From positions 1-39,074 of the forward strand of contig CAZPDW010000001.1 in NCBI GenBank assembly GCA_964585535.1: DNA of 39,074 bases. Direction: 5' to 3'. Positions 10,243 through 32,809 of this stretch are shown here, piece after piece. Both the position numbers and the translations under genes were made by a program. The notes under the pieces are model-generated. The model did not search any database and was not told the DNA's origin. It worked only from the letters and a program-made list of their open reading frames with translations. The stretch comes from an uncultured Pirellulales bacterium. GTDB lineage: Bacteria; Planctomycetota; Phycisphaerae; Sedimentisphaerales; Anaerobacaceae. Position 1 is the stretch's first letter. The number at the start of each line of letters is the position of its first letter.

Positions 10243-10281
10243 CGTGAAAAAGTTCGAGAAAACGCATTCTGGAAGGTCTCA

Positions 10282-11217: not shown

Positions 11218-11251
11218 TGGTCGGAAGAGACGACGATTATGTTAAATCCTG

Positions 11252-11280
11252 TTGAAGTTTGAAAAGTGGTGTTGTATTAT
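11252..11280 (+). promoter_or_regulatory. sigma70-like promoter TTGAAG-N17-TATTAT
   Basis: TTGAAG at 11252-11257 and TATTAT at 11275-11280. The -10 ends 15 nt before ATG 11296 and there is no SD, so the leader is very short. Confidence 0.4.
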
Positions 11281-11295
11281 TAGGATTCGGCACTT

Positions 11296-11787: not shown

Positions 11788-11826
11788 ATATCGTATTGCG
11801 TATTGCGTGGGGATTAGGGGACAAAA

Positions 11827-12672: not shown

Positions 12673-12702
12673 AAAAATACGAAAAGGAAAGGATGGATTT
12701 GC

Positions 12703-14930: not shown

Positions 14931-14959
14931 TGGCAATCTCTGCAAAGGACAACGAGATA

Positions 14960-14988
14960 ATGATATTTTGAAAGTGCCGCTGTGTCAA
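14960..14988 (-). promoter_or_regulatory. sigma70-like promoter (TTGACA-N17-TATCAT on the minus strand) for waaA
   Basis: On the minus strand the -35 is + 14983-14988 and the -10 is + 14960-14965. Confidence 0.45.
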
Positions 14989-15012
14989 ATGGTTGACTGT
15001 TCGGGGCGGGGG

Positions 15013-15041
15013 TTGACAAATCCATAAGCCGTTGTTAGAAT
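15013..15041 (+). promoter_or_regulatory. sigma70-like promoter TTGACA-N17-TAGAAT for the CapD-like gene
   Basis: TTGACA at 15013-15018 and TAGAAT at 15036-15041, back to back with the waaA promoter. Confidence 0.5.
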
Positions 15042-15088
15042 CGGCCCTGTAGCTAATTCAGCGGTACAATTATGACGATACAGAGGAT

Positions 15089-17035
15089 ATGCCTGAACCG
15101 GATACAGACACTCAGATAGATGAGCGGAAGCAGCAGCCGGGGTTCTCAGTTCCTCCGAGCGTGCTGCTGAGGTTTCGCAAGCCGCTGATTATTCTCGCGC
15201 ATATCGTGGTTTTTGCAGTCTCACTGATGTTCTCGTTTCTTCTTGCATCCAACATGCAGTTCAGGTCGAAGTGGCTCGTTCAACAGTATCCGACTCTGCT
15301 GGTGTTCTTTATTGCCATCAAGCTTGTCGTGTTCGGATTGTTCAGGCAATACCGCGGGTGGTGGCGTTACGTGGGCATTTCCGACCTTCTCGGAATACTG
15401 CGTGCCTCGCTGGTGAGCACATTGATAATCGTGGCCCTGTGGTGGGCGGCTGTGTTGCAGGTTGACCCGATTCGCAGAATGCTCAGGAATATATCCGAGG
15501 TCAGCCAGGGCGTTTTTATGGCCGATATGTTCGGAACGGTCCTGCTGCTGGCGGGCGTGCGAATGGTTATAAGATTATACTACGAGGAGTTTCGCACCGT
15601 CGAAACCGGGCGGCTCAAACGGTTCCTGATTGTCGGGGCGGGCAATACGGGCGAATCGCTGCTGAGAGAAATTCATCGAATGCGAGTCGTCGAGTACGAC
15701 GTCATCGGATTCATCGACGACGACCCGGCAAAGCAGCATACCAGCATTCATGACATACCCGTCCTCGGGACGGTGGAACGGCTTGGGGAAATCTGCGAAG
15801 AGAACAATATCGAAGAGGTGGCAATAGCCATGCCATCGGCGACGCATTCTCAGCGCAGGCGGGTTATTCAGCTCTGTGAGGGAACGAAGGTCCACTTCAG
15901 GACGGTGCCTTCGATGACCGATATCGCCTCGGGCAGGTTCCGCGTCTCGCAGATTCGCGATATCGATATCAACGACCTGCTCGGCAGAGAAGCCGTCAGG
16001 CTCGAGCCCGGTTCGATAGAGGCCTTTACCAGAAACAAAACGGTTCTGGTCACCGGTGCGGGCGGCTCCATCGGCTCGGAAATGTGCAGGCAGATTTGTA
16101 ACTTCAAGCCGAAACTGCTGCTGCTGATTGAACAGGCGGAAAATCCTCTGTTCTACATCGAGCGGGAATTGAACAATACATTCGGTGACGTTGCGATACA
16201 GGCCGTGATATGCGACATTACCGACCGGATACGCGTTGAAGGCATCTTCCGGTATTACAGGCTCGATGTCGTCATCCACGCAGCGGCCCACAAGCACGTA
16301 CCGCTGATGGAGCTGAACCCGGGTGAAGCCATCAAGAACAACGTGGTGGGGACGCGGACGGTTGCCGACGCCGCAGACAAAACCGGTGTGGCGAACTTTG
16401 TGATGATAAGCACGGACAAGGCCGTCAACCCGACCAGTATAATGGGCTCGTCAAAACGAATCGCCGAACTATATATCCAGGACCTGAACAAGACCAGCGG
16501 CACCGATTTTGTGACGGTTCGCTTCGGCAACGTGCTCGGCTCGGAGGGCTCGGTAGTGCCCATCTTTAAAAAGCAAATCGCCCGGGGCGGCCCGGTTACC
16601 ATTACCCATCCCGATATGAAGCGCTACTTTATGACGATACCCGAGGCCAGCCAGCTCGTGCTGCAGGCGGCGAGTATGGGCAGGGGCGGAGAAATCTTCG
16701 TTCTCGATATGGGCGAACCCGTCAAAATCGTTGACCTGGCCCGCGAGCTTATCACGCTCAGCGGTTTCCGCGCCGGCGAAGACATAGAGATGGTTTTCAC
16801 TGGTAAAAGGCCCGGCGAGAAGCTCTTCGAGGAGCTTTCGATAAAGGGCGAGGACATGCAGCCGACGAGACATCCCAAAATCGGAATCTGGACGAATATT
16901 CCGATGGACCGGGACAATTTGCGAAAAGGTATAGACGAGCTGGTTCAAATCGCCCAGACGCAGGACTACGACAGGATTACCGCGAAAATCAAAGAGCTTG
17001 TCCCCGAGTACGTCGGCCCCGGCAACAATTCATAG
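15089..17035 (+). CDS. Membrane-anchored nucleotide-sugar 4,6-dehydratase/epimerase (CapD/WbpM/PglF family polysaccharide biosynthesis protein)
   Basis: N-terminal TM helices. Two Rossmann motifs (FLIVGAGNTGESL and VLVTGAGGSIGSE) and MISTDKAVNPTSIMGSSKR. GAGGA RBS before the ATG. Confidence 0.85.
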   Translation: MPEPDTDTQIDERKQQPGFSVPPSVLLRFRKPLIILAHIVVFAVSLMFSFLLASNMQFRSKWLVQQYPTLLVFFIAIKLVVFGLFRQYRGWWRYVGISDLLGILRASLVSTLIIVALWWAAVLQVDPIRRMLRNISEVSQGVFMADMFGTVLLLAGVRMVIRLYYEEFRTVETGRLKRFLIVGAGNTGESLLREIHRMRVVEYDVIGFIDDDPAKQHTSIHDIPVLGTVERLGEICEENNIEEVAIAMPSATHSQRRRVIQLCEGTKVHFRTVPSMTDIASGRFRVSQIRDIDINDLLGREAVRLEPGSIEAFTRNKTVLVTGAGGSIGSEMCRQICNFKPKLLLLIEQAENPLFYIERELNNTFGDVAIQAVICDITDRIRVEGIFRYYRLDVVIHAAAHKHVPLMELNPGEAIKNNVVGTRTVADAADKTGVANFVMISTDKAVNPTSIMGSSKRIAELYIQDLNKTSGTDFVTVRFGNVLGSEGSVVPIFKKQIARGGPVTITHPDMKRYFMTIPEASQLVLQAASMGRGGEIFVLDMGEPVKIVDLARELITLSGFRAGEDIEMVFTGKRPGEKLFEELSIKGEDMQPTRHPKIGIWTNIPMDRDNLRKGIDELVQIAQTQDYDRITAKIKELVPEYVGPGNNS

Positions 17036-17378: not shown

Positions 17379-18227
17379 ATGGATAATCCAATGCAAATAG
17401 CGATGCTGCAGGACAAAATAGTCGCCCTCGACGAGCTTGAAGCCGTTTATCTGGACAGGGGGATGTTCTTCGGGGACGGTGTTTACGAGGTTTTGCGCAG
17501 CTACGACGGAAAAATCTTTGCGTTGGAGGAGCACTTAGCCAGATTCAAAAGAGGCCTAGCGGAGCTTCAGATAGGCGGTATCGAACCGGACGAGGTGCGT
17601 CGGCGGGTGCAGAAGGCCTTTGCGACGGCGGGGATTGCGAATGCGAGGATATATTTTCATCTCACTCGCGGCTCGGCAATCAGGAACCACCTATGGGACG
17701 ATGAAATAAAGCCGAACTTTTTCCTGATGGTGACGAAGTTGCGAGAAGACAGGCAGGAAAAGACAAACGGCATCGCGGTATCGACTTACCCGGATTTGCG
17801 CTGGAAGCGGTGCGATATAAAGTCGCTTAACCTGCTGGCGAATGTTCTCGCCCGCAAGGACGCGTCCAGGAAGGGATGCGGCGAAGCAATCCTGTTGAAC
17901 GAGCAGGGTTTTATAACAGAGGGGGCTGCCTCGGCATTTTTTGCAATAGCCGGCGGGGGGATTCAGACGGCGTCGTTGGCGGCAAACATTCTGCCTTCTA
18001 TTACGCGAAAATTTGTTTTCGAAGCAGCCGGGAAGGTGGGACTGGAATTAGTGGAAAAGCCGTTGACGCCCCGCCAGGCAATTGGTGCCGATGAGCTTTT
18101 CATCGCGGTCACCACTAAGGATATTGTTCCGGTAGTGCGATTCGACGACAATGTTGTAGGCGATGGCAGGCCGGGTCGATATACCAAGCTGCTGATGGAG
18201 CAGTTCCGCACTTTCACGCTTTATTGA
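17379..18227 (+). CDS. dat: Class IV (fold type IV) aminotransferase, most like D-amino-acid transaminase
   Basis: ORF 17235-18227, with the start moved to ATG 17379 (MDNPMQ..). Motifs FGDGVYEV, EHLARFKRG, the PLP Lys in CDIKSLNLLANVLA, and GCGEAILL. Confidence 0.7.
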   Translation: MDNPMQIAMLQDKIVALDELEAVYLDRGMFFGDGVYEVLRSYDGKIFALEEHLARFKRGLAELQIGGIEPDEVRRRVQKAFATAGIANARIYFHLTRGSAIRNHLWDDEIKPNFFLMVTKLREDRQEKTNGIAVSTYPDLRWKRCDIKSLNLLANVLARKDASRKGCGEAILLNEQGFITEGAASAFFAIAGGGIQTASLAANILPSITRKFVFEAAGKVGLELVEKPLTPRQAIGADELFIAVTTKDIVPVVRFDDNVVGDGRPGRYTKLLMEQFRTFTLY

Positions 18228-18243
18228 ATTAAGCGAAGGGCCT

Positions 18244-18456
18244 TTGAAGCTGCCATCAAACTGGGATAAATTGGTAAATCAGATTGAGAAACCCGCTCGA
18301 CTGAACGGCGTGAAAAAGAGTATCAATAGAGGAGCACCTTTGGGAGAAGGCAATTGGAAAATGAAGACGGCTTTGAGGATGAATTTAGAATCGACCTTGC
18401 AACCAGGAGAAAGACCCAAAAAATGTACCCCCTATGGCGCAGCCGGGCACCTTTAA
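18244..18456 (+). pseudogene. C-terminal remnant of a Planctomycete/Verrucomicrobia-type Y1 (IS200-like/REP-associated-like) putative transposase
   Basis: The translation LPSNWDKLVNQ..KKSINRGAPLGEGNWKMKTALRMNLESTLQPGERPKK follows the tail pattern I recall for that family (..W...VN......L..S..RG.P.G...W....A..LGLE.TLRPRGRPKK). The catalytic N-terminal domain is absent, and the fragment starts 17 nt after the preceding gene. Confidence 0.5.
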
Positions 18457-18507
18457 TTCCCTGGGATTGAGGAAATATTAATAGAGCCAGTAAGAATATG
18501 CAAGAAT

Positions 18508-18777
18508 ATGATCGTTCACGGTTACCTTTTTATCGGTATAGCTGGGATATGTTTATTGGTACTGACGATAATTGTTTGTATTTTTGGAGATACTGGCTCA
18601 ATTAGTACAGACCCGACAGACCCAGGTGTGTTAAATGGCACCTTGAATTATATGGAAAAAGGAGCATTTGCGAAGTACTACATAGTTTATAAGAGCATTC
18701 TTGGGATTGGTTTTGTTAGTGGAATTCTGGGCATAATACTCTATTTGCTCTTAAAGAAGAGGCCCCCTGCTTCGTAA
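18508..18777 (+). CDS. Small hypothetical membrane protein (89 aa, two predicted TM helices) in AT-rich DNA
   Basis: Hydrophobic stretches IVHGYLFIGIAGICLLVLTIIVCIF and ILGIGFVSGILGIILYLLL. The local sequence is visibly AT-richer than its surroundings. I recognise no family. Confidence 0.45.
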   Translation: MIVHGYLFIGIAGICLLVLTIIVCIFGDTGSISTDPTDPGVLNGTLNYMEKGAFAKYYIVYKSILGIGFVSGILGIILYLLLKKRPPAS

Positions 18778-18951
18778 AGCTGTATAAGCCATATGGCTAT
18801 TTGATAAAGCAAATAGCGGTTTCCACACGCAAAATACGAAGCATAAATGTGTCCTGTATTAGTCCAGCGATCTTAGAGGCCCAGGAGTGAGCTGGTCCAG
18901 CGAATTTGGGTTGGTTCATTTTGCCGAGTTGTTAGTAAAAGGATGCGGAAG

Positions 18952-18978
18952 TCGCAGGTTGAAATGACCTGCGATTTT
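18952..18978 (+). terminator. Intrinsic-terminator-like hairpin
   Basis: TCGCAGGT (18952-18959), a 7-nt loop, ACCTGCGA (18967-18974), then TTTT (18975-18978). Confidence 0.35.
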
Positions 18979-18986
18979 GTTCTTAA

Positions 18987-19349
18987 AACGATACGCTCTT
19001 TGAAAAATTCATAAACCGGCTCATGCGTGCGGTAACCGATGCCGATTCGGCCAGCGCAACGAACCCTGTCGATGTCGTTGATTACACTTACAACGACAAC
19101 GGTATCCGTGTCGAGAAGTATACCTTCAAGGTCGCTCAAAATTACCTCGACACCGTCGATGAGCAGACATACGCCACCAATTCCAGGACCGTAGCGTACG
19201 TCATCGACGGGCATGATGGAATTTTGCGTGACCGATTTGGTTTTTTTAGATACTGCTCCCCCTTTGGTGGGGATAAATTAACGCAGATTAACAGTGTTCG
19301 TTCAGATTTTGGATTCCCGCTCCCCTGGGGATACATTTCGCGGGAATGA
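18987..19349 (+). pseudogene. Fragment of a YD/RHS-repeat protein
   Basis: The open frame from 18987 reads ..FINRLMRAVTDADSASATNPVDVVDYTYNDNGIRVEKYTF...RTVAYVIDGHDG.., a typical YD-repeat unit (NRL..VTD....Y.YD.NG.R). It has no N-terminus and no Rhs core or toxin end. Confidence 0.55.
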
Positions 19350-19413: not shown

Positions 19414-20916
19414 CTATAGCTCCCAACCTTGTCGATAATTCGGCTTTATAAGCTCGTTAGCGGCCTGGCTGTTGGTTTTCATATTCACAGGGTCCCATTT
19501 GAGTTTCTTTTTCGTTCGCATGGCCATAACGCCAAGACAAAGGGTCTCCGTAACAGGCCCAGCCACTTCGAAGTTGGCCCTGGCGGGCTTTGCGCCTTTG
19601 CAGGCATTGACCCAGTCTTTGGTATGTCCACCGGACCGCTCGATTGTTTGAGGGGGCCTGGTATATGTATTGTTCCTTGCCTTTGGAATCAACCGAGGTT
19701 TCCTGCCGTGGAATGCGGCAAGGATTTTGCCCTTGTCTCCCACAAACAGGATTCCTTCCTCGGGCATATCTTCGCCGTCCTCGTCTAATTCCAGCGGTTT
19801 GGCCGGTCGCATCCCACCATCATACCAGAACAACTCAACCGGCGGCATTGACGCCCTGGCGCCGAATGTGAAATGCGCGGTCATTGCCCTGGGGTGTGCA
19901 ATCTTGTTGTACACCCGTGTCGGTATTTCATCGATGACATCGCAAAAGAAACTGCCGCTGGCTTCAATAGTTTCGGGGGGACCGAGTTTCAAAGCTCGAT
20001 AGATTACATCTATGGAATAACAGCCCATGTCACCTATGGCTCCGGTGCCGAAGTCATACCAGGCCCTCCAGACGGTATGCGTATATTTGTAGCTGAAAGG
20101 TCTGTATTTTGCAGGGCCAAGCCACAGGTCCCAATCGAAACCGTCGGGAATCAGCTCGGCTTCGGGCAGTTTTTTTATGCCGGAGGGCCAGACCGGCCTG
20201 TTCGACCAGTTATGTACCCGGCGAACAGGGCCAATGGCGCCGCTTGCGACCATCTCACAAAGCAGGTCGGTATCCTTAGAAGATGACGGGCCTGTAGCAA
20301 CTTGTGTGGCAACGCCTGTTTGTTTTGCCGTCTCTGCAAGAAGTCTGGCTTCATAGACGGAATTTGTCATCGGTTTCTGGCAGAATACATGTTTGCCCAT
20401 TTTCATAGCCCTGGCGGCTATTTGTGCATGTTGGTGGTCGGTAGAGCCGATTATCACGGCATCGAGGTCCTTCTCTTTTTCGAGGCATTGCCTGAAATCG
20501 GCATAGGCGGAGCAGCCCTTATAATTCATATCCTTTTGCTTGCCGTACCAGGCATTCACGATTTGCTTAGCAGGTTCACGGCCCGCCCTGCAGCCTTCAA
20601 CGCCTTCGTCCCATCCGGGTTCGTCAATGGCCTTGCGAATCATATTTCGAAGGCCGTACGGCTTCCAGGTCAGATAACGGTTATCGTCCTTCACCGGGTC
20701 GCATACCGTGGTGATTTGCAGCTCGGGTTCTTTTAGCATACCGAGCATAACGCGTGTCCCCTGGGTACCGGTTCCAATACAGGCACAGTTGATTTTATCA
20801 CTCGGTGCTACGAATTTGGCCCCGCCCATTACGTGACGAGGGACAATAGTAAAAGCTGCTGCTGCGGCCGCCGCCCCCAGAAAATCACGTCTGTTCATTT
20901 TATTTTCATCCGACAT
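19414..20916 (-). CDS. Tat-exported Gfo/Idh/MocA family oxidoreductase
   Basis: The start is set at ATG 20916 (AAGGAG 8 nt upstream). Twin-arginine signal MNRRDFLGAAAAAAAF, Rossmann motif INCACIGTGTQG and VFCQKP (an EKP-like motif). Confidence 0.85.
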   Translation of the reverse strand: MSDENKMNRRDFLGAAAAAAAFTIVPRHVMGGAKFVAPSDKINCACIGTGTQGTRVMLGMLKEPELQITTVCDPVKDDNRYLTWKPYGLRNMIRKAIDEPGWDEGVEGCRAGREPAKQIVNAWYGKQKDMNYKGCSAYADFRQCLEKEKDLDAVIIGSTDHQHAQIAARAMKMGKHVFCQKPMTNSVYEARLLAETAKQTGVATQVATGPSSSKDTDLLCEMVASGAIGPVRRVHNWSNRPVWPSGIKKLPEAELIPDGFDWDLWLGPAKYRPFSYKYTHTVWRAWYDFGTGAIGDMGCYSIDVIYRALKLGPPETIEASGSFFCDVIDEIPTRVYNKIAHPRAMTAHFTFGARASMPPVELFWYDGGMRPAKPLELDEDGEDMPEEGILFVGDKGKILAAFHGRKPRLIPKARNNTYTRPPQTIERSGGHTKDWVNACKGAKPARANFEVAGPVTETLCLGVMAMRTKKKLKWDPVNMKTNSQAANELIKPNYRQGWEL

Positions 20917-21102
20917 AACAGAAGCTCCTTGTAGTTCTAAACGCCAATTTTCCATTCATACCTACCCGGCTACGTTGCCCGGGCCTTATTTTTTCATCTA
21001 TTACTCACCAAATCCGCCTTTATCAGATACGCGCTGAGACGTTTTTGGATTTCCACTGCCCGCTAAGCTTCGCGTCAATGTCAATAGTATCCTGTAACAC
21101 TT

Positions 21103-22461
21103 TTAATAACCGAGTTCGGTTTGAGTTTCGGCGATTGATTCTTCGATTATGTCCATTGCCCTGGCGGCGATGTCGTCGGGCATAACCACCGGCGGACTCA
21201 TACGCAGGATGTGCCCGGCGGGTATCCAGGCAAGTCCTTTCGTAAAGGCCTTTTGATAGACCATTTTGCCGGCCTCGTCAAACGGCTCTTTGGTATTTTT
21301 GTCTTTTACTAACTCGACTCCCATAAGACAGCCCTTACAGCGGGTGTCTCCGACAATAGAGTATTTTTTGGGCCAGTCGGCCATACGTTTGGTGAAGTAT
21401 TCGCCGAGTTCGGCGGCGCGGGCGAGCAGGCCTTCGGTTTCTATTGTCTCGATGCACGCCAGGGCGGCTGCGCAGGCCATCGGGTTGCCGCCGTAGCTTG
21501 TCGAGGCGCTGATTTTATCGACCGCCTCGGCATACTGTTTCTTTACCACCATTGCGGTTACGGGAAAGCCGTTGCCAAGGCCCTTGCCCAGTGTCACGAC
21601 GTCCGGCACGACATTGAAGTGCTCGATACAGAGGTATTTTCCGGTTCTTGCCATACCGGTGAGGACCTCGTCGGCGACTAACAGGATGCCGCGTTCGTCG
21701 CAGAAGGTGCGCAGCTTGCCGAAGAAATCGTCCGGCGGCATAATCGTACCTCCCCAGCCCTGGATGGGTTCGAGTACAAAGGCGGCAATTTGGCCGGTGG
21801 TGCTTTCTTTGATGAACGTATCGTAAAACTCGAGATACCGCTCGGTATCCAGCGAGCCGTCGGCTCTTGTCCACCAGGGGCGGTATGTATCTGGGCGGGG
21901 CACCATATAGAAGCCGGGCGCCCGCGTCGGGCCGTAGAACGGGTTCATTCGAGCAAGCGAGACCGCGTGGCCGGTCTTGCCGTGAAAGTCCATAAAGCAG
22001 GAGATAAACTCGTGTTTTCCCGTGGCCGCCCGGCAGGTGCGAAGGGCGGCCTCGACGGCGGTCGTGCCGGAATCGTATAACTGGACGCCGGCGAAGCCGT
22101 CGGGCAGAACGTCGAGCAGCTTTTCCAACAGTTCGACCTTGACCGGGGTTATGAAGTCGTGGGCGTTCATCAGGCGATTGGCCCATTTAGCGACCGCCTC
22201 GCTGACCTTCGGGTGGCAGTGGCCGAGCGTCGTAACATATATGCCGCTGGAAAAATCGATGTACCTGTTGCCGTCAACGTCGGTGAGCGTACAGCCCTTT
22301 CCCTCGCTGAAGACGACCGGAAAGAGGCGGACCTGGCCCGACAGTCCCTTCATTATTCTGGCTGCCCTTTCGTGCAGCGCGTTGCTTTTGGGGCCGGGCG
22401 GCGTGACTTTGACATCCGGCCACTGATTCAAATCGATGCTGTACGCAACAGGATCATACAT
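21103..22461 (-). CDS. Class III (fold type I) PLP aminotransferase, GabT-like
   Basis: Motifs PPGPKSNAL, DFSSGIYVTTLGHCHP and DEVLTGMARTG, with the PLP Lys in DVVTLGKGLGNGFP. The start is ATG 22461 or ATG 22482. The ORF-track start at 22599 lies upstream of the predicted TSS. Confidence 0.85.
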   Translation of the reverse strand: MYDPVAYSIDLNQWPDVKVTPPGPKSNALHERAARIMKGLSGQVRLFPVVFSEGKGCTLTDVDGNRYIDFSSGIYVTTLGHCHPKVSEAVAKWANRLMNAHDFITPVKVELLEKLLDVLPDGFAGVQLYDSGTTAVEAALRTCRAATGKHEFISCFMDFHGKTGHAVSLARMNPFYGPTRAPGFYMVPRPDTYRPWWTRADGSLDTERYLEFYDTFIKESTTGQIAAFVLEPIQGWGGTIMPPDDFFGKLRTFCDERGILLVADEVLTGMARTGKYLCIEHFNVVPDVVTLGKGLGNGFPVTAMVVKKQYAEAVDKISASTSYGGNPMACAAALACIETIETEGLLARAAELGEYFTKRMADWPKKYSIVGDTRCKGCLMGVELVKDKNTKEPFDEAGKMVYQKAFTKGLAWIPAGHILRMSPPVVMPDDIAARAMDIIEESIAETQTELGY

Positions 22462-22602
22462 TTTTGCACCTTTCACTGCCATGCCATCTGCGGTGTATAT
22501 ATCGTTCACCAAACATGCTCTTATTGGAATCGCTTTACCGGCCCGGGTGTTTGCACTTCTGCAATTTTGGGAATTTTTCCCGGAAAAACGACCTTGCAAT
22601 CA

Positions 22603-22650
22603 ATTATACCGAATGTTAAATTGTGTTCAAGTGTGTTTTTTAATAACATT
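22603..22650 (-). promoter_or_regulatory. 48-bp promoter/operator module, copy 1 (reads toward the aminotransferase gene)
   Basis: The minus strand reads AATGTTATTAAAAAACACACTTGAACACAATTTAACATTCGGTATAAT. It contains TTGAAC-N16-TATAAT. An upstream A-tract and inverted arms AATGTTA / TAACATT bracket the -35. It is 43/48 identical to 32698-32745. Confidence 0.65.
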
Positions 22651-22708
22651 CAATTTTGACCGGCTGCAGGGGCTGCCAAGCGAAGCATATTAAGGCAGGA
22701 GACAATAA

Positions 22709-23491
22709 GTGGCTCAAAAGAGCGGAAAGATAAGTCAGCCGCGACGGCTCGAGGCAATCAGGCGAAAGCTGCTCGAAGACGATGAGGTCTCGATAGAGGT
22801 CCTTGCCGGCGAGTTCGGTGTCAGCGGTATGACCATACGCAGGGACCTGGACGTGTTAGAGTACCAGGGCGACATAATCCGGACGCACGGCGGGGCGGCG
22901 GCGGCAAAACGGCTTACCTTCGAGTTTTCGTTCCGCGACAGGCAGAACAGGAACATCGAGCAAAAGAGGCGGATAGCCCGGCTGGCGGTAAAATACGTCA
23001 GGCCCGGCGAAGTGATTATGCTCGATACGGGCACGACGACGCTGGCAATCGCCCGGCGGCTCAGCGACAAAGAAAAGATAACGGTAATCACGACCTCACT
23101 GGCGATTGTCTCGGAGCTTCAGTTTGCCGCCGGCGTAGAGACCATTCTTTTAGGCGGTTTTCTGAGAAAGGCATCGCCCGATTTGCACGGGCCTCTTACC
23201 GAGCAGAACGTCGAGCTCTTCCGCACCGATGTTGCTTTCATGGGCGCCGACGCCGTTGACAGTATCGGCAATACCTATACCGACGACCTGCGCGTCGCAA
23301 ACCTTGATAAAAAAATGGCTGCAAATGCAAAAAAGGTAATTGTTGTCGCCGACAGCAGCAAATTCGGCAGGGCCGCAATGTGCAGGGTGTTAGGCCCGGG
23401 CGATTACGATATGCTCATAACCGATTCGGCTGTTGACAAGAAAATCGCCGCAACCCTGGCGAAACGTAAAATCAAGATAGAACCGGCATAA
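22709..23491 (+). CDS. DeoR family transcriptional regulator
   Basis: GTG start with AGGAG 7 nt upstream. wHTH VSIEVLAGEFGVSGMTIRRDLDVLE, and a C-terminal DeoR sensor domain (MLDTGTTTLAIA, VITTSL, AFMGADAV). Confidence 0.9.
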   Translation: MAQKSGKISQPRRLEAIRRKLLEDDEVSIEVLAGEFGVSGMTIRRDLDVLEYQGDIIRTHGGAAAAKRLTFEFSFRDRQNRNIEQKRRIARLAVKYVRPGEVIMLDTGTTTLAIARRLSDKEKITVITTSLAIVSELQFAAGVETILLGGFLRKASPDLHGPLTEQNVELFRTDVAFMGADAVDSIGNTYTDDLRVANLDKKMAANAKKVIVVADSSKFGRAAMCRVLGPGDYDMLITDSAVDKKIAATLAKRKIKIEPA

Positions 23492-23511: not shown

Positions 23512-24321
23512 GTGGAAGAACGCAATTTGTTTTTATCGCGATTTTTCAGCACGGGCCCCGCGATTGTGGTGGCCTTCGACCACGGTATGTTCGACGGGCC
23601 TATCGCAGGTGTTGACAAAATCAGGGAAATTCCGGACAAGATTCTGCCGGAAATAGACGGTGTTTTGATGTCGCCTGGTGCGCTGCGGGACATCGGGCCT
23701 GACCTGTGCGGCCATCGCGGTAGTCCGATGCCGATTGTAAGGATAAACTGGTCGAGCATTTACTGCTTCCAGTGGGACTACCATAGTGGTGACACGGTTC
23801 GTATATACACACCGGCTGAGGCACTCAAATCGGGGGCACAGATGGTTCTTATCTCACTGTCACTGCATACGGGCGACCAGCAGCGTGACAGTAAGAATAT
23901 CGAAGTATTTTCAAGACTGTGCAACGAGGCACATGAGTTAGGGCTTCCGGTGATAGGGGAGTATTTTCCCGTTGACGAAAATATAAGCGAAGACGCCCTG
24001 TACGAGGAGATAAAGATTGGCGCCCGGATACTCTACGAGCTTGGGGCCGATGCGATAAAGACCTTTTATACGAAGGACTTCGAGCAGGTTGTGGCGGGCT
24101 GTCCGACGCCGATACTGGCCCTGGGAGGCCAGCGGCGGGGCAGCGACCTCGACGCTCTCAAACTCGCCCGCCGGCAAATCGATGCCGGGGCGGCGGGTAT
24201 CGTCTTCGGCAGGTATGTGATACAATCTGAAAGGCCCATAGAGCTGCAAAAGGCGCTGCTCGACGTGGTCAAAGGGGGCGTCGGCGGCGAGCAGGCGGCG
24301 GCCAAATACGGGCTGGATTGA
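23512..24321 (+). CDS. Class I aldolase of the DhnA/FbaB/LsrF (DeoC/LacD-like) family
   Basis: GTG start preceded by AGGAG. Motifs IVVAFDHGMFDGP and GADAIKTFYT (candidate Schiff-base Lys), with a TIM-barrel-like periodicity. Confidence 0.7.
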   Translation: MEERNLFLSRFFSTGPAIVVAFDHGMFDGPIAGVDKIREIPDKILPEIDGVLMSPGALRDIGPDLCGHRGSPMPIVRINWSSIYCFQWDYHSGDTVRIYTPAEALKSGAQMVLISLSLHTGDQQRDSKNIEVFSRLCNEAHELGLPVIGEYFPVDENISEDALYEEIKIGARILYELGADAIKTFYTKDFEQVVAGCPTPILALGGQRRGSDLDALKLARRQIDAGAAGIVFGRYVIQSERPIELQKALLDVVKGGVGGEQAAAKYGLD

Positions 24322-24388: not shown

Positions 24389-25672
24389 ATGTCGAGATAT
24401 GTGGAATACTACAGGCGAAAGGAATTTGACATTCCGCAGACGATGCAGGCGGTAATCGCAGCGGGGACGGGTTTTGAGAATTTGAGGGTGGCCGAGGTGC
24501 CGGTGCCGCAAATCGGCCCAGACCAGATTCTTGCGAGGGTCGATGCGGCGGGGGTGTGCACGAGTATTCTCAAGCTGATTGACCAGGGTCCGGAGCACAC
24601 GTATATCAACGGCTGGGATATGAAAAAGTGGCCTTTGATTCTGGGCGACGAGGGCTCGGTGACGCTTGTCAAAATCGGGGAGAATCTCAAAGGCAAATAT
24701 CGGCCTGGCGAGCGTTACGCGATTCAGCCGGCCGTCGGCGTCGGGCCGATTGTGCACCGCGAGCGATACAACAATAACGGCGAGGGTATGTACAAGTGCG
24801 GCGTGGGCTATTCGCTGCCGGGCCATCTCGCCCAGTACATTTGCATCCAGGAGGAGGTTCTGGCCGGCGGCTGTCTGCTGCCGCTTGGCGACGATGATTT
24901 GGCGTATTTTGCCGTGTCGATGGCGGAACCGATAAGCTGTGTCTATTCGGCCCAGCAGAGGAACTACCATTTGTTAAAGGACAGTCCATTTGCCGAACGC
25001 AGGGCGAATATGGGTTTTTTGCCGGGCGGGGTCACTGTTGTCGTCGGAGCAGGGGCAATGGGCAGGATGCACACAGAGCTTGCGCTGCGGTTCAAGCCGG
25101 GCGTGCTGATTGTATCGGATTTGCAGCAGGGCCGGCTCGATAAAACCGCAAAGGCCATCAAAGAAAAGTGCCGCTCGTGCGGGACGCAGCTTGTATGTGT
25201 AACGGCTGATAAGCTTAGGCAGAGTGTCAGCGAGCTGTCGGCCGGCAGGGGCGCAGACGATATTATATTAGCGGTGGGGGTCAATGCCGTTCAGCAGCAG
25301 GCGATCGAGCTGCTGGCGCCCGGCGGTGTGGCTAACCTGTTCGGCGGACTGCCGCGCGGACAGCATATCCTCAAGCTCGACGCGATAGCCGTTCACTACC
25401 GCGAAATCAAGGTTGTGGGTTCAAGCGGCGGCGAACCGAGTGATATGGCTGCAACGCTCGAGGCGATTCATACCGGCGACATCGACCCGGGTAATTATGT
25501 CGCCGCGGTCGGCTCACTCGATAATGCCGTCGACGTATTGAAAATGATAAAGGAAACGCAAATCGACGGCAAGGCGATTCTCTATCCCCACATCAAGCAC
25601 ACGCCACTGAAAACCGTTGACTACTGGGACAAACAGCAGGAGATCGATTTCCTCGACCGGCAGCTTGTTTAG
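24389..25672 (+). CDS. Atypical medium-chain dehydrogenase/reductase (zinc-ADH-like fold, long form of 427 aa)
   Basis: GroES-like N-domain (ILARVDAAGVCTSILK, LILGDEGSVTLVKIG) and Rossmann motif VVVGAGAMGRM. The canonical GHE reads GDE and no four-Cys structural-zinc lobe is seen. Confidence 0.7.
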   Translation: MSRYVEYYRRKEFDIPQTMQAVIAAGTGFENLRVAEVPVPQIGPDQILARVDAAGVCTSILKLIDQGPEHTYINGWDMKKWPLILGDEGSVTLVKIGENLKGKYRPGERYAIQPAVGVGPIVHRERYNNNGEGMYKCGVGYSLPGHLAQYICIQEEVLAGGCLLPLGDDDLAYFAVSMAEPISCVYSAQQRNYHLLKDSPFAERRANMGFLPGGVTVVVGAGAMGRMHTELALRFKPGVLIVSDLQQGRLDKTAKAIKEKCRSCGTQLVCVTADKLRQSVSELSAGRGADDIILAVGVNAVQQQAIELLAPGGVANLFGGLPRGQHILKLDAIAVHYREIKVVGSSGGEPSDMAATLEAIHTGDIDPGNYVAAVGSLDNAVDVLKMIKETQIDGKAILYPHIKHTPLKTVDYWDKQQEIDFLDRQLV

Positions 25673-25683: not shown

Positions 25684-27375
25684 TTACATATTTATGGTTA
25701 TTTCAGGGCCTCCGGTGTGCCTGATTTTGAGGACGCCGCCTTTGTCGAGCGGCTGCCACGTCCAGCCCTCGGCGTCGAGGTCGGCTCGTTCGGTTATCTT
25801 ATTGCCTGCAACAGTTATACTCTTCGGTTTGGCTGTGATGCGCAGGACTTCTGTCGCGGTGTTGTCGTAGGTTTTGTATGCAATCTCATTCAGTTTGTAG
25901 GAAATTTTTTGTACGACCGATGTCGAGCGCAGCAGGTGATTCTCGTCGGCGGGCGCCCATTCGGGAATTGCGGCGACGGCTGCGGTGAAGTGGCGGATAT
26001 AATCGCTGTAGCCGTCGCTGAACCAGATTTGTCTGCGAATAGGTTTTTGGCCGGTGACATATACCATTCCGTTTTCCTGGGTCATGTAGGTAGCCCAGTT
26101 GAGGTATTTCTCCGCCAGGTCTTTGAATTTACTGTCGCCGGTTCTCTCGTACCACATTGCGCATATCGAGCCGAACCTTGCGGTGTGGCTGCCCATGGGG
26201 ACATAGCACCAGAACTGCTCTTTTATGGCCGGGGCATTTTCGGTTTTGAAGGCGTATTTGACCCAATAGATAAGGTAGGGGATAAATTCGTCGATGTCGT
26301 CTCGCAGGTGGGGATTGTTGATGAGGTATCGTGCGGTTTCCAGCGGGGAGATTTGATTGCGATTGACGTTGCCCTGGTCGTTGGGAATATCCTCGAAGTA
26401 ACCCTTCCAGACCATAGACTTGACAGGGCCGAGATTCGAGAACAGCCAATCCCAGACATGCTTTCGGGTGGTCTTGTAGGTCTTGAGTTTTTCGGGGTCG
26501 AGGTCGATTCTGGCAGAAATTCTTATCAGCTCATCGAAGAGGCTTATCGCTCCGATTACGTTCGAGCAGTATTTTTCATAGACCTTGCCGGTCTCGGCAT
26601 GTACCCGGAAGGGCCAGGGTGAGACGTATGCCTTGTCGAACCATGGGGTCTGCTCGGCCCATTCTTTGTCCTTTTTCACGCCTCGAAAGGCGTTGGCGGC
26701 GAGGGCATCGGCGCAATTGATGGCGGCATCGAGGTATTTTTTTTCATCGACTACCTTATAGAACTGAAGGTATGCGAAAGCAAGCTCGCCGACTTTGTCC
26801 GGCTCGATGACATTGAGGCCGTCGGCTCTTCCACCTATACCCCAGCGTGTTCCGCCGACATATTCGGTTGCTTTGGGGTCGCTGCTGGCGTAGGGGACTT
26901 TGGGCCAGAGCCAGCCCTTGGGTGTGGAGCCGTGTTCGATTTGATGGTCGAGGCACTGGGCGAGCATGCCGATGTAGGAGTCGTCGCCGGAATAGACCCT
27001 GTAATCGAGGACGAGGCCCTGGACGAGGCCTGCGTAGAAGCAGGCGGGGTTGTGCGATTCATCGGAGCCGGCGTCGCCTTTGAGGAACGTTTCTTCGCTG
27101 ATATGCTCGAAGTTGAATATCCAGTTGTGTACCATGTAGTAGGGCAGGCCTGTCGTCGATTCTTTGGGGCAGTTTTTGATGAAGCCGGCGGCGAGGTCGC
27201 AGACTTTTGTGTAGGCGGCGCCGGGGACATCCGGCTTGTACCAGGAAAGCAGCCCAGCCGTGTCGTCGTACACTGCCTTGTGGGTACATAATGTTTCGCG
27301 CGTGGTTTCTGAAAACACCAGGGCGTTAGCAAACAGGAATACAAATATCACATAATACAGGTTCTTTCGCATCAT
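25684..27375 (-). CDS. Secreted protein, paralog A of an unassigned family (putative alpha/alpha-toroid glycan-active enzyme plus C-terminal beta-domain)
   Basis: Signal peptide MMRKNLYYVIFVFLFANALVFS. It shares long identical blocks with 30953-32629: HNPAC.YAGLVQGLVLD.RV..GDDSYI, VPYASSDP, IEPDK.GEL..AYL.FY.V..EKKYL.AAINCADALA, SPWPFRV.A.TG, YFEDIPND, WFSDGY.DYIRHF and STSVVQKI. The fold assignment is inferred from helical repeat patterns only. Confidence 0.75.
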   Translation of the reverse strand: MMRKNLYYVIFVFLFANALVFSETTRETLCTHKAVYDDTAGLLSWYKPDVPGAAYTKVCDLAAGFIKNCPKESTTGLPYYMVHNWIFNFEHISEETFLKGDAGSDESHNPACFYAGLVQGLVLDYRVYSGDDSYIGMLAQCLDHQIEHGSTPKGWLWPKVPYASSDPKATEYVGGTRWGIGGRADGLNVIEPDKVGELAFAYLQFYKVVDEKKYLDAAINCADALAANAFRGVKKDKEWAEQTPWFDKAYVSPWPFRVHAETGKVYEKYCSNVIGAISLFDELIRISARIDLDPEKLKTYKTTRKHVWDWLFSNLGPVKSMVWKGYFEDIPNDQGNVNRNQISPLETARYLINNPHLRDDIDEFIPYLIYWVKYAFKTENAPAIKEQFWCYVPMGSHTARFGSICAMWYERTGDSKFKDLAEKYLNWATYMTQENGMVYVTGQKPIRRQIWFSDGYSDYIRHFTAAVAAIPEWAPADENHLLRSTSVVQKISYKLNEIAYKTYDNTATEVLRITAKPKSITVAGNKITERADLDAEGWTWQPLDKGGVLKIRHTGGPEITINM

Positions 27376-27400
27376 AAGAGTTCCCTATTATCTGTTATTG

Positions 27401-29278
27401 TTAAATGCCCTTGCCTGTTACGGTCCGAACGACTGTTCCGCCTTCAAAAGGTGGAACCTTGATTAAGGCCGAGGTGATATTATCGTCTTGCCTTGTAAAA
27501 AGGTAAAAGCCGGTCGGCACATCCGCGCTGCCGACGAGCTCGGCTTCAACCGTTCCCGAAGACGCCTCGTAAGTGCAGGACTTCATCTTTGAAGTGCGAT
27601 GGGCACGGACAATCCTGAGGGCGTCGTCCATAGTGAGATAAATCGGGTTGTAATCTGCAATGCCTTCGCTGACAAGTTTCAGCTCTCTGTCCCAGTTCTT
27701 CGGCTCTATTCTGAAGAGGTAGTCCGTTTCGTGAGTGAAAAGCACCGCCAACGCCCTGGCATTGAGAGCCCTGGTAAGGATTCTGATGCCGCGGTCAGCC
27801 GTTCCATCGTCATCGTTGTCGGGCTTCCATTCGTAGCCGGTTATATCAGCAATCACAGTTGAGCAGTTAAAGAACTTGCGCCCCGCCAGCTCCACAAAGT
27901 CGGCGTTATATCTCGGATGCGAGACCCTGACTTTTTTGGGCTTTCCATAAACCGGTTCTTCATACAGGCGGAATGGGCCTGACTTGATTCCGGGTCCCGG
28001 CTGACCCCAGGCCCAGTCGAGGGGAGCTGCAGCGATGAACTCAATACGCCACTTATCTGCGATGTGCGGTATGCAATTGCTGCCCATTTCGCCCCAGTGC
28101 GCAATGAGATACTTCGACATCGGCAGCGGCTGATTGTCGGCGCACCATTTGTCAATGGCCTTCAGATTTTCCGATGCGACCTCATCGGGCCAGGACTCTT
28201 TGTCGTTATGATTGTAGAAGATGAACTCGTCGTAGAACTTCGAGCGGTACGGCAGCGCTTTGGGATAGTAGTAGTCGGGTATGAAATGGTTCGGGACCAT
28301 TTGATACTTGTAGTCGGCCTCGAAGTTGGCGGCGTCGGATTCCGGTCTGGGCGGTCTTCCGAAGGCGTGGGGCGACCAGGCTGCCTGTCCGTCCAGGATA
28401 TATCCCCGCAGCTCTTCGACCGCCTGAGGATTCAGGTTGTAAATGAACAGGGCGAGCCACGGCTTGAAACCATATTTGTTGGCGGTTTTAATCCAGAAAA
28501 ACGGAGTCTGGTTCCAGCGTCCGCCCGAGCCGACAACATCATCGATACGCATAGTCACTATCGGCGGCAGAAGCCGCATTGCGAATGGTTTTCTTGCCGC
28601 CCAGACGATTGACCGCCACAGCAAATCATCCAGCCCACCCATAGGCCCAAGCACCGAGCGGTACATCCAGTCCTGGCTGGTGAACTGCGCTACCCTGCCT
28701 TTTCCCGCTGAGGCAGCAACGAGCAGCGGGTAATTGCTGCCGCTCACCAGGACATCGGCATTGACAGCGGAAAATCGAGCAAGCTGCATTACGCCAAATA
28801 GTTCGAGTATCTCAACCGGTTTGTGAAGGGCGGTTATAAAATGGCCTGCCGGCGAGAACTTTAACTCGCCGACATCCACAGGGCGGGACTGTCGGCCCGA
28901 CTGATTCTTCAAAAAGGCGCCCGGAACATCGGGGTCAAAACTGACCAGGCCGGTACCTGCCTTTACACCTGCCGTCAACAGCTCATCGAGTTTGTCCTTC
29001 AGCCGGCTGTCACCGGCGGCTAAGCGGCTGTGGGAGACTATTACCAGGGCATAATAAACGACGGATGCGGGAAGATTTTGCCGGCCCAAATCCACCACGC
29101 TATATGGCACGCCAAAATGGTCGAGATAGGGCAAGAGCTTTTCCTTTGCCTTTGAAACTTGCGGGCTGTTAGTATTCAATAAGACGAGCACATCCATCGA
29201 GCCGGCCTTTGCAGAGGCGTTTGCAGCACCAATTAGTATCATTGATACTAACAGCAGTATAAAAGTTATTTTTTTCAC
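27401..29278 (-). CDS. Secreted 625-aa protein of unknown function (possible flavodoxin/GATase1-like N-domain plus polysaccharide-deacetylase-like middle domain)
   Basis: GTG start preceded by GGAGAAGGA. Signal peptide MKKITFILLLVSMILIGAANASA. The N-terminal VLVLLNTN...LPYLDHFGVPYSVVDL...YALVIVSH resembles sugar-enzyme accessory domains. IVTMRIDDVVG resembles the xRxDD start of NodB/DUF2334-like deacetylase folds. This is a weak call made by eye. Confidence 0.6.
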   Translation of the reverse strand: MKKITFILLLVSMILIGAANASAKAGSMDVLVLLNTNSPQVSKAKEKLLPYLDHFGVPYSVVDLGRQNLPASVVYYALVIVSHSRLAAGDSRLKDKLDELLTAGVKAGTGLVSFDPDVPGAFLKNQSGRQSRPVDVGELKFSPAGHFITALHKPVEILELFGVMQLARFSAVNADVLVSGSNYPLLVAASAGKGRVAQFTSQDWMYRSVLGPMGGLDDLLWRSIVWAARKPFAMRLLPPIVTMRIDDVVGSGGRWNQTPFFWIKTANKYGFKPWLALFIYNLNPQAVEELRGYILDGQAAWSPHAFGRPPRPESDAANFEADYKYQMVPNHFIPDYYYPKALPYRSKFYDEFIFYNHNDKESWPDEVASENLKAIDKWCADNQPLPMSKYLIAHWGEMGSNCIPHIADKWRIEFIAAAPLDWAWGQPGPGIKSGPFRLYEEPVYGKPKKVRVSHPRYNADFVELAGRKFFNCSTVIADITGYEWKPDNDDDGTADRGIRILTRALNARALAVLFTHETDYLFRIEPKNWDRELKLVSEGIADYNPIYLTMDDALRIVRAHRTSKMKSCTYEASSGTVEAELVGSADVPTGFYLFTRQDDNITSALIKVPPFEGGTVVRTVTGKGI

Positions 29279-29304
29279 TTTCCTTCTCCCGTAACCGGCT
29301 TTTT

Positions 29305-30930
29305 TTATAATCGAACAACAATCTCGTTACCGTGTGTATGCCTGATGCGCAGGATGCCGCCTTTTTTCAAGGGCTTCCAGGTCCAGCCCTCGGTATCCGG
29401 CGATTTGCTTTCGTCAATTTCTTTGCCCTTTAGTATTACGTTTTTGGGCTTCGAGGTGATGCGGAGGACCTCGGTGGAGGCATCATCAAAAGTCCTGTAT
29501 CGGATTTCGCTGGGGGAGTATTCGATTGTTTTTATAACGGAGGTAGTGTGGACAAGATGGTTGGCATTGTCCGGGGCGAGTTTTTCGGGCATTACCGCCA
29601 TTGCATTGAGGTAGTGCTCGACGTAGTCGCCGTAGCCGTCGGTGAACCAGATTTCATCGTCGTATGGGTCGCCGGGATACTCATTTCTGCCCTCGTAATC
29701 GACGCTGTATGTGGCCCAGTTGAGCTGGCGAACTGCGTTGGCGACGCGGGAGTCGTCACCGGTGAGTTTGGCATAGAGCAATTCGATTGAGGCGTAGCGT
29801 GAGGTGTGGCTGTTGCCTTCGTATTGATATACGGATTGTTCGTTGATGACGGTGACGCCGTATTTGTCCCAGCGGTGGTTGCCAAGCTCGTTGAACATCC
29901 AGTCGAGGCAGCGGCGGGCGTCTTTCTGCCAGGTGTCGCCCCACTGCTCTTTGTGATTAAGGATATACCAGGCGAGCCGGCCTGCGTTGATACCGGTATT
30001 GGACCAGATGGAGATATCCTCGAAGAACGGGCCGAACTTATTTTTGGAGATGGGAACCTTTTTCAGCCAATCGATGAACAGCCGTTCGGCCATTTTGTAT
30101 TGTTCGGTATTGCCGACGCACATTTTTATCAGCTCGTCGAACATCATTGCCGTCCAGGTCCAGTTGCTCGTATAAGGCCAGAGGACCCTGCCGGTTTGGG
30201 TGTTGACCTTGTAAGGCAGGGGGGATTTTTCGATGTCACCGGCGGCGGTATTTTTGGCGAGGGTGTCGGCGATTTTCACGGCGGCGTCGAGGTATCTTTT
30301 ATTGTCGGTGATTTTGTACAGGTTTATGAGCTGGTATCCGAGGTCGCCGGCCTTGTCCAATTGGGTGACATTGAGTCCGTCGCGGAGGTCACCGTCATAG
30401 CGAAAGCCGGGTTCCCGGCTCGAGTTCCAGGGGTAGGGCAGATTAGGCCATTTGCAATCCGGGCCGCTCAGCCCGTGGTAAAGATAAAAGTCGGCCATAT
30501 AAATCATATTTTCCGGCACCTTGCGGTCGCCGGTATAGGCGTAGTATTTTGCCCAGGAGCTTAGAAGCATCTGAATCTGGTCGCCGCCGATGCCGTCGTC
30601 ATGGTGATGATGTTTGAAGACGGGGTTGTCGAGGGTGTATGGGAGGATTCGGTGGAGCATATAGTATTTGACGCCGTCGTGGACGTAGCCGATGGTGTCC
30701 CATTTGTGCCAGATGAGCTGGAGAACGAGGTCGTAGGATTGGCCGAGGTTGTCGCCGGGCCAGGGGACGATATTGTTGTTTGGGTCGGTTTGAATATAGT
30801 GATGGCCGAGCCGTTCGGGATGGCCGAGCAGGCCGTTAGGGCGCTTTCTCGGCTCAACACGCTCGGCGGCGGAAACGGTTGAAAGCAAGAACAATGCGGC
30901 AGTCAGAGCACATGCAGTATATCTTTTCAT
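29305..30930 (-). CDS. Secreted protein, divergent paralog B of the same unassigned family
   Basis: The start is set at ATG 30930 (GGAG 6 nt upstream). Signal peptide MKRYTACALTAALFLLSTVSAA. It shares with A and C: DKAGDLGYQLINLYKITDNKRYLDAAVKIADTLA, SPLPYKVNTQTG, FFEDI, WFTDGYGDYVEHY, HTTSVIKTIEY and the C-terminal TEVLRITSKPK...EGWTWKPLKKGGILRIRH. Confidence 0.75.
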   Translation of the reverse strand: MKRYTACALTAALFLLSTVSAAERVEPRKRPNGLLGHPERLGHHYIQTDPNNNIVPWPGDNLGQSYDLVLQLIWHKWDTIGYVHDGVKYYMLHRILPYTLDNPVFKHHHHDDGIGGDQIQMLLSSWAKYYAYTGDRKVPENMIYMADFYLYHGLSGPDCKWPNLPYPWNSSREPGFRYDGDLRDGLNVTQLDKAGDLGYQLINLYKITDNKRYLDAAVKIADTLAKNTAAGDIEKSPLPYKVNTQTGRVLWPYTSNWTWTAMMFDELIKMCVGNTEQYKMAERLFIDWLKKVPISKNKFGPFFEDISIWSNTGINAGRLAWYILNHKEQWGDTWQKDARRCLDWMFNELGNHRWDKYGVTVINEQSVYQYEGNSHTSRYASIELLYAKLTGDDSRVANAVRQLNWATYSVDYEGRNEYPGDPYDDEIWFTDGYGDYVEHYLNAMAVMPEKLAPDNANHLVHTTSVIKTIEYSPSEIRYRTFDDASTEVLRITSKPKNVILKGKEIDESKSPDTEGWTWKPLKKGGILRIRHTHGNEIVVRL

Positions 30931-30952
30931 GACCGGCTCCATTTATGAATTG

Positions 30953-32629: not shown

Positions 32630-32697
32630 CTTAGTGCCTCCATAAAGTATTGTCACTGTCCCGTTGTGAGTGTTTTTACACGTCGGGGCCTGAAAAA

Positions 32698-32745
32698 AAT
32701 GTTATTAAAAAACACACTTGAACATAATCTAACATCCTTTATAAT
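32698..32745 (+). promoter_or_regulatory. 48-bp promoter/operator module, copy 2 (reads toward the isomerase-kinase-transporter operon)
   Basis: AATGTTATTAAAAAACACACTTGAACATAATCTAACATCCTTTATAAT, with TTGAAC at 32718-32723, a 16-nt spacer and TATAAT at 32740-32745. It is 43/48 identical to the reverse complement of 22603-22650. Confidence 0.65.
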
Positions 32746-32809
32746 GCCCTGCAACTATGTTTTCCACAAAAAAACCGGAATCGAAAAGAACCGTTAAGGG
32801 AGACGCACA

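Follow-up and report, generated by a model that had tools for sequence, protein, structure and literature searches.

A duplicated, bidirectional promoter/operator cassette probably places an aminotransferase and a sugar pathway of a planctomycete under one DeoR-family regulator

Repressors of the AgaR, GlpR and SrlR type are encoded at the locus on which they act, regulate their own genes and govern divergent catabolic operons. The inducer in the DeoR family is typically a phosphorylated intermediate. DeoR of E. coli, which is capable of long-range looping, represses a sugar-phosphate pathway through multiple operators (deo/nupG/tsx). Its operator is a 16-bp palindrome in which a TGTTA and a TAACA arm are adjacent (5+6+5; TGTTAGAA-TTCTAACA; PMC5326754). 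Another arrangement has been described for FruR, a DeoR-family protein of Lactococcus lactis and Faecalibacterium prausnitzii: 10-bp motifs (TGAWWGWTTT), which may lie in either orientation, form an array over the -35, the -10 and the start, where the apo-regulator blocks RNA polymerase, and the effector is a sugar phosphate (PMC11906611). Some members of the family are activators or dual regulators (PMC11906611).

In this report, we describe a promoter/operator cassette that occurs twice, in inverted orientation and about 10 kb apart, in the window, i.e., the whole stretch of 39,074 nucleotides of an uncultured planctomycete that was analysed (Table 1). To our knowledge, hardly any information exists on how transcription is controlled in Planctomycetota. 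Read directly, copy 1 is AATGTTATTAAAAAACACACTTGAACACAATTTAACATTCGGTATAAT (the reverse complement of 22603-22650) and copy 2 is AATGTTATTAAAAAACACACTTGAACATAATCTAACATCCTTTATAAT (32698-32745). The two are identical at 43 of 48 positions and without interruption over the first 27 nt, just as a preliminary description of this DNA had claimed. The duplication is well above chance: with up to three mismatches allowed, the 27-mer is found in the window at these two places only, and it did not occur in any of 100 shuffles. In a repeat search, the inverted pair reached 77 nt, with 77% identity (22574-22650 and 32698-32774). The duplication is an old one, because copy 2 carries a copy-specific base (AATCTAACAT) and both copies are kept across relatives. 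The gene calls confirm that, relative to the genes they face, the two copies have the same orientation, with the class III aminotransferase in front of copy 1 and the isomerase-kinase-symporter operon in front of copy 2. They also place the start of a DeoR-family gene 59 bp from copy 1 (22709, as compared with 22650). The preliminary observation is confirmed, and the interpretation attached to it is partly supported. Judged from its sequence, the cassette is a real, functional control element of a tidy but ordinary kind of regulon, in which one local DeoR-type regulator probably switches four neighbouring sugar/aminotransferase gene groups.

Table 1. Features of the two cassettes and of the genes that they adjoin (positions in the window)
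Feature	Position	Strand	Remarks
Operator array, copy 1	22613-22649	+	Units 1-4
Copy 1, unit 1	22613-22622	+	Direct RTGTK unit, ATGTTAAATT
Copy 1, unit 2	22623-22632	+	Direct RTGTK unit, GTGTTCAAGT
Copy 1, unit 3	22633-22642	+	Direct RTGTK unit, GTGTTTTTTA
Copy 1, unit 4	22643-22649	+	Inverted unit, ATAACAT
Operator array, copy 2	32699-32735	-	Units 1-4 on the minus strand
Copy 2, unit 1	32735-32726	-	Direct unit, ATGTTAGATT
Copy 2, unit 2	32725-32716	-	Direct unit, ATGTTCAAGT
Copy 2, unit 3	32715-32706	-	Direct unit, GTGTTTTTTA, same letters as copy 1 unit 3
Copy 2, unit 4	32705-32699	-	Inverted unit, ATAACAT
Promoter facing aminotransferase	22603-22630	-	-35 TTGAAC 22630-22625, 16-nt spacer, -10 TATAAT 22608-22603; 10/12
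Promoter facing isomerase-kinase-symporter	32718-32745	+	-35 TTGAAC 32718-32723, 16-nt spacer, -10 TATAAT 32740-32745; 10/12
Divergent promoter facing deoR (predicted)	22594-22622	+	-35 TTGCAA 22594-22599, 17-nt spacer, -10 TAAATT 22617-22622
Divergent promoter facing parC operon (predicted)	32726-32754	-	-35 TTGCAG 32754-32749, 17-nt spacer, -10 TAGATT 32731-32726
Class III aminotransferase	21103-22482	-	Pfam Aminotran_3, 3e-97
DeoR-family regulator gene	22709-23491	+	Pfam HTH_DeoR and DeoRC
DeoC/LacD-type class I aldolase	23512-24321	+	Co-directional with deoR; profile matches
Zn-dependent dehydrogenase	24389-25672	+	Co-directional with deoR; profile matches
parC, parB, 625-aa protein, parA	25684-32629	-	Four co-directional secreted-protein genes of unknown function
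Fucose-isomerase-like isomerase	32810-34171	+	Downstream of copy 2
FGGY sugar kinase	34196-35698	+	Isomerase operon
Na+/solute (SSF) symporter	35688-37301	+	Isomerase operon

The likely operator is an array of four units. Their consensus is RTGTK; three are direct and follow one another at exactly 10 bp, and the fourth is usually inverted (ATAACAT). The pattern TGTK-N6-TGTK-N6-TGTK occurs in the window only at the two cassettes (0.02 occurrences expected), as does TGTTA-N20-30-TAACA (0.10 expected). The inverted arms about 30 bp apart that the preliminary description had taken for the operator do exist, and they are units 1 and 4. However, they are the ends of a phased array, and the outer arm is not universal: among related loci (designated by L numbers), it is degraded or direct in L004, L005, L010, L039 and L040, where the phased units persist. 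In L004 and L005 it reads TTGTGC or TTGTTC, and the fourth unit is direct in L040 and degenerate in L010 and L039. In the distant loci L009, L010 and L037-L040, the letters of the units vary as well (GTGTGACATC, GTGTTCACTT). Nonetheless, TGTK-N6-TGTK-N6-TGTK is present in each of these six loci (17-21 kb) at one place, directly upstream of the operon that contains deoR. The invariant property of the putative operator is thus the helical phasing of its TGT cores and not the 30-bp inverted pair.

The array resembles the known operators to different degrees. The preliminary description had invoked the E. coli DeoR palindrome; this does have TGTTA/TAACA arms (PMC5326754), and both copies have these half-sites. 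But the E. coli arms are adjacent, N6 apart within 16 bp, whereas the outer arms of the cassette are 25 bp apart with two direct units between them; the inner pair, TGTTT-N5-TAACA, spans 15 bp with one mismatch in both copies. The closest documented architecture is the 10-bp array of FruR. As in such tandem-repeat operators, at least three units at 10-bp phasing overlap the core promoter, and the units extend across the -35, the -10 and the region past the start. Differences are the number of units (eight for FruR, four here), their sequence, the bidirectionality and duplication of the cassette, and the lack of a PTS/HPr partner at this locus. The cassette also shares the general bacterial design of divergent promoters, in which one binding region serves two opposed units, the regulator's own gene included; it differs in that its promoters interdigitate and in that the whole cassette is duplicated, wiring in two further operons.

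Each cassette contains two back-to-back promoters. The preliminary description had placed TTGAAC-N16-TATAAT at each copy, and a promoter scan recovered both, with just one other 10/12 match in 19 kb; scores are relative to the sigma-70 consensus, the use of which in Planctomycetota is assumed (a literature search for a planctomycete promoter consensus found nothing relevant). The second promoter, predicted on the opposite strand, had been overlooked. Its two versions, TTGCAA-17-TAAATT and TTGCAG-17-TAGATT, score 8/12, which is under the threshold of the scan, and they were not called by it. Both pairs of promoters have -35 and -10 hexamers with the 16-18-nt spacing of the sigma-70 type. An alignment of 31 non-redundant sites along the array strand shows that the promoter of that strand (TTG-N3, 17-18 nt, TA..TT) is conserved in every one of them. 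In it, TTG[C/A]A. lies 17 nt (18 nt in three sites) upstream of TA[T/A]ATT, a hexamer that makes up the 3' half of unit 1; T1, A2 and T6 of this -10 are found in 31 of 31 sites, and TTG at 17 nt in 27-28 of them. Another candidate for the divergent promoter, TTGTGT-N17-TAACAT, was dropped in favour of TTGNNN-N17-TAWWTT, as it is not conserved in loci of the L004 type. Further, the similarity goes beyond the 48-mer because a conserved CAAS, seven bases after TATAAT, is the -35 box of the array-strand promoter.

The two promoters do not share the same distribution. With one exception, TATAAT or TACAAT, at fixed spacing, is present at every site where a gene starts downstream. It is absent where none does (L011/L024, L019/L027, L032, L009, L010, L037 and L040); in L019/L027, the only gene on this side is that of a tRNA, 290 nt away. 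The exception is L039, where a divergent gene begins ~145 nt away from the array and TATAAT is nonetheless missing. Of the six loci of 17-21 kb named above, all found by way of the regulator protein, only L038 has TTGAAC/TATAAT; it is missing in L009, L010, L037, L039 and L040. The array-strand promoter is kept in loci without the opposite one, and it is independent of the latter because it is conserved where the spacer has no ATTATA. The array and the array-strand promoter represent the universal core of the cassette, since they are kept where TATAAT is missing. On this comparison, the promoter facing the aminotransferase or the isomerase is an add-on that is built into units 2-3 and the spacer.

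The units cover positions from about -52 to -19 of the TATAAT promoters and from the -10 element to about +30 of the array-strand promoters. The two promoters interdigitate such that each -35 lies at the predicted start of the other, ~33 bp apart. Transcription is predicted to start at ~22596/22595 (CA, minus strand) for the aminotransferase, at ~22629 (plus) for deoR, at ~32752/3 (plus) for the isomerase, with a leader of ~58 nt to ATG 32810, and at ~32719 (minus) for parC. A CA is conserved in related sites at the distance expected for a start after the -10 (about 7 nt), which is only suggestive of starts. From ~11 nt past each predicted start there is a T-run followed by an A-run (e.g., TTTTTCCGGGAAAAA; 22570-22590 on the minus strand and 32757-32775 on the plus strand); the T-run is at a fixed distance in most related sites. 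This element may form a hairpin at the 5' end of the transcript or serve as a further site for a protein.

Loci that were collected via the regulator protein are unbiased with respect to the cassette pattern. The closest regulator homologue in a search of the contig collection is 81% identical, and the MAGs that supplied the best homologues are labelled Planctomycetota, Sedimentisphaerales, Phycisphaerales or Pirellulales. In L001-L005, L007 and L008, whose regulators are 67-81% identical to the one in the window, the cassette is kept while both flanks have diverged. In L001, L002, L003, L007 and L008, the cassette is located between the aminotransferase and deoR, and neither flank can be aligned. 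The identity between the window and L002 at third codon positions is only 58-61%. The retention of the cassette between diverged flanks, at this level of third-codon identity, indicates that it is under selection and supports its assignment as a selected cis-regulatory element. In L001 and L002 the second copy precedes the isomerase operon, and the order of the genes is unchanged. The loci with an orthologous second copy are L001, L002, L012, L013, L015, L023 and L036, and both copies are kept in L001, L002 and two long metagenome contigs. The TTGAAC/TATAAT promoter of copy 2 is likewise conserved in front of isomerase genes orthologous to that of the window.

Other genomes have assembled the same genes differently. 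L004, L005 and L038 have a single divergent region, with the aminotransferase on one side of the cassette and, on the other, genes for an FGGY kinase, an AraA-like isomerase, DeoR and the aldolase. In L009, L010, L037, L039 and L040, a related array is upstream of one operon that encodes FGGY kinase, isomerase, DeoR, aminotransferase, amidohydrolase and symporter. The order deoR-aldolase is conserved in L001-L008 and L038. Since the aminotransferase accompanies the sugar enzymes and the regulator throughout, this synteny, that of the single-operon genomes included, supports the earlier idea of one regulon that links the aminotransferase to a sugar pathway. The single-operon cluster, which recurs among MAGs of Planctomycetota and is at ~7100-17000 in each of the five loci, has an AraA-like isomerase, a class III aminotransferase, an Amidohydro_2 protein and an SSF symporter. 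A GFO/IDH/MocA protein with a GH109-like C-terminus is encoded there too, and PD40/Tricorn-like, MBOAT and ALGX genes often come after the cluster.

The product of 22709-23491 is a member of the DeoR family, with matches to PF08220 (7.7e-15) and PF00455 (7.4e-49) and, in the PDB, a sequence match to the DeoR C-terminal domain 7l6l. The best NCBIfam models are those of AgaR (199.6 bits), GlpR (185.6 bits) and SrlR (173.8 bits), and all of these scores are below the equivalog cut-offs (260 bits for AgaR, NF040755). At 94.5 bits against a cut-off of 244 (NF007961), the protein is not an orthologue of E. coli DeoR. Its gene set (aminotransferase, aldolase, isomerase, FGGY kinase and SSF symporter) is unlike aga, glp or srl. 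Thirteen orthologues, which keep the TGT cores, all have the recognition helix VSGMT[IV]RRDL. L006, the most distant orthologue (59%), has a different recognition helix and a weak, shorter and different array.

We consider it likely that this adjacent protein acts at the two cassettes as the repressor of four transcription units. For the identity of the binding protein, its oligomeric state, the repression and the inducer, we infer the following. A cassette of ~60 bp would act in both directions, its four-unit array being interleaved with two back-to-back promoters of the sigma-70 type. The array-strand promoter, whose -10 falls within unit 1 and whose start is closely followed by units 2-4, would drive deoR-aldolase-dehydrogenase from copy 1 and the four-gene parC unit from copy 2; TTGAAC-N16-TATAAT, with its -35 inside unit 2, would drive the aminotransferase from copy 1 and isomerase-kinase-symporter from copy 2. 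In the absence of inducer, the DeoR-family protein, probably as a dimer of dimers, would occupy the array and keep RNA polymerase off the two promoters in each cassette. The aminotransferase (perhaps with the oxidoreductase gene that follows it), deoR-aldolase-dehydrogenase, parC-parB-unk-parA and isomerase-kinase-symporter would be co-repressed, the regulator's own gene among them. Release would be brought about by a pathway intermediate, most likely a sugar phosphate made by the FGGY kinase.

The array could instead be an operator at which the DeoR-family protein activates or acts dually, like FucR or F. prausnitzii FruR. We regard this as rather unlikely. Half-sites between about -52 and -19 of the TATAAT promoter are at typical positions for an activator too, a fucose activator is among the weaker NCBIfam family matches of the regulator, and F. 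prausnitzii FruR shifts from blocking to helping RNA polymerase on one 10-bp motif array (PMC11906611). However, repression is more likely than activation because the TATAAT promoter, at 10/12, is near to consensus and should need no activation. Also, the units cover the -10 and the +1 to +30 region of the array-strand promoter, which is a repressing position, and the closest named relatives of the regulator (AgaR, GlpR and SrlR) are repressors.

Somewhat less probable is that the phased direct repeats are bound by another regulator that is encoded elsewhere, e.g., a response regulator of the kind that binds direct repeats spaced by 10-11 bp, with deoR as a passenger. Direct repeats about one helical turn apart are typical of regulators of the OmpR/ArcA type, and the repeats of ArcA also read TGTTA. 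Against this, the array of the single-operon genomes precedes the very operon that contains deoR, and each of the arrays has a deoR orthologue either within a few kb or elsewhere on its contig. Where the TGT cores are retained, the recognition helix does not vary, and the half-site equals that of E. coli DeoR (PMC5326754). It is improbable that the cassettes are merely copies of a strong promoter (UP-element A-tract, -35 and -10) with no operator. The A-tract, TTGAAC and TATAAT do explain part of the conserved bases, but there is also conservation of the upstream ATGTTA and of TAACAT in the spacer, which are not promoter elements, and the array survives where TATAAT has decayed or never existed.

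The distribution of the cassette in metagenomes also favours a control element operated by the local DeoR-family protein. When 241 million metagenome records were scanned for exact matches to the pattern AACAYACTTGNACAYANNNTAACAT, 26 stretches were obtained; as this pattern fixes the core and so preselects the hits, unbiased evidence comes only from bases outside the pattern and from the protein-derived loci. Four of the 26 (L014/L021 and L018/L028) are low-complexity chance hits. The 22 real matches adjoin aminotransferase/deoR, parC/isomerase or FGGY-isomerase-deoR, with the exceptions of L022 and L034, in which the gene on the promoter side encodes another oxidoreductase or a secreted protein. 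Near-identical contigs are present in JGI metagenomes (L013, L015, L033 and L035). Because the matches are confined to one gene set, with at most two per contig even on a contig of 285 kb, the cassette is not a dispersed repeat. The notion of a functionless dispersed repeat, mobile-element end or recent gene-conversion product, which could appeal to the inverted pair and to local recombination (a mosaic L001 and patches of 95-98% identity), is very improbable and largely refuted by the two copies in 39 kb with their constant genic context, by the retention of both, with copy-specific differences, across lineages with saturated synonymous sites, and by the absence of a transposase between or beside them.

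Copy 1 is in the intergenic region from 22482 to 22709 and copy 2 in that from 32629 to 32810. The four secreted-protein genes are probably part of the regulon, since they are downstream of the divergent promoter of copy 2; co-regulation of parC-parB-625-aa-parA with the other cassette genes is probable on the same grounds. The ATG of parC, at 32629, is preceded by GGAGG. ParA, ParB and ParC are paralogues of 545-567 aa. Neither they nor the 625-aa protein have a Pfam or NCBIfam match, although one has a sub-threshold C5-epimerase-like hit, and ParC and the 625-aa protein have no sequence match in the PDB. On the other side, 147 nt separate the aminotransferase gene from a downstream gene for a TAT-signal GFO/IDH/MocA oxidoreductase (19414-20955, minus strand), and the two may share a transcript. 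The oxidoreductase scores 389 bits against a model of BT_2158-type glycoside 3-dehydrogenases (cut-off 750).

The cassette constitutes independent evidence that ties a class III aminotransferase to an isomerase-kinase-aldolase sugar pathway and to secreted proteins of unknown function. It is possible, but doubtful, that its presence signals a so far uncharacterised catabolic route, widespread among Planctomycetota and amounting to a new amino-sugar or sugar-amine pathway; a literature search on the gene cluster found nothing relevant. If such a route exists, the class III aminotransferase would be an obligatory partner of an aldose-ketose isomerase, an FGGY kinase and a class I aldolase, along with an amidohydrolase, GFO-type dehydrogenases and unknown secreted proteins, and the conserved operator would be a handle for the full regulon and the inducer. 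The principle (a DeoR-family repressor, phased repeats and divergent, autoregulated promoters) is a textbook one, and the cassette is a well-delimited case of it in a poorly studied phylum. Together with its candidate regulator, it provides a testable example of promoter/operator grammar in Planctomycetota and a sequence tag with which to gather the regulon from metagenomes.

The start of the aminotransferase bears on the length of its leader. The TTG at 22599 had been ruled out in the preliminary description, and it is indeed implausible: orthologues align from ATG 22482/22461, and the Pfam domain begins at residue 92 of the long ORF. ATG 22482 (MAVKGAK...) is favoured as the start, and ATG 22461, which has the better Shine-Dalgarno sequence, is a possible alternative. 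The predicted leader is ~114-135 nt, as compared with ~40-95 nt in L003, L004, L007 and L008. The suggestion that this leader is regulatory in itself is not supported. It has no Rfam match at E<=1, its fold shows no unusual stability (MFE z-score of -0.23 relative to shuffles), and its high identity to L002 (94%, against 58% at third codon positions) may reflect a recombination tract. This conservation is not diagnostic because, in a sliding-window comparison with L002, the tract enters the coding region of the aminotransferase, a similar patch of 95-98% identity is inside deoR, and L001 is recombinant. A small ORF in the leader (MFGERYIHRR...) was rejected; the peptide is changed in L002 and interrupted in L001.

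A few features of the surrounding DNA are recorded here. The patches at 22393-22632 and 23190-23370 are 92-98% identical to L002, versus ~58-60% at third codon positions elsewhere, and could be recombination tracts or the product of unusual constraint. L001 is a mosaic (its 4197-5313 compared with 22483-23491 of the window): its aminotransferase and aldolase are 96-97% identical to those of the window, its DeoR is 80% identical and L002-like, and an insertion of ~110 nt separates its copy-1 leader from the start of the aminotransferase. Between the genes for a class IV aminotransferase and the oxidoreductase, 18001-19000 has a GC content of 0.44, versus ~0.54 elsewhere, and short ORFs only, without family matches. 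A tRNA gene at 3974-4058 (minus strand) is the sole match above the Rfam gathering threshold in the whole window.
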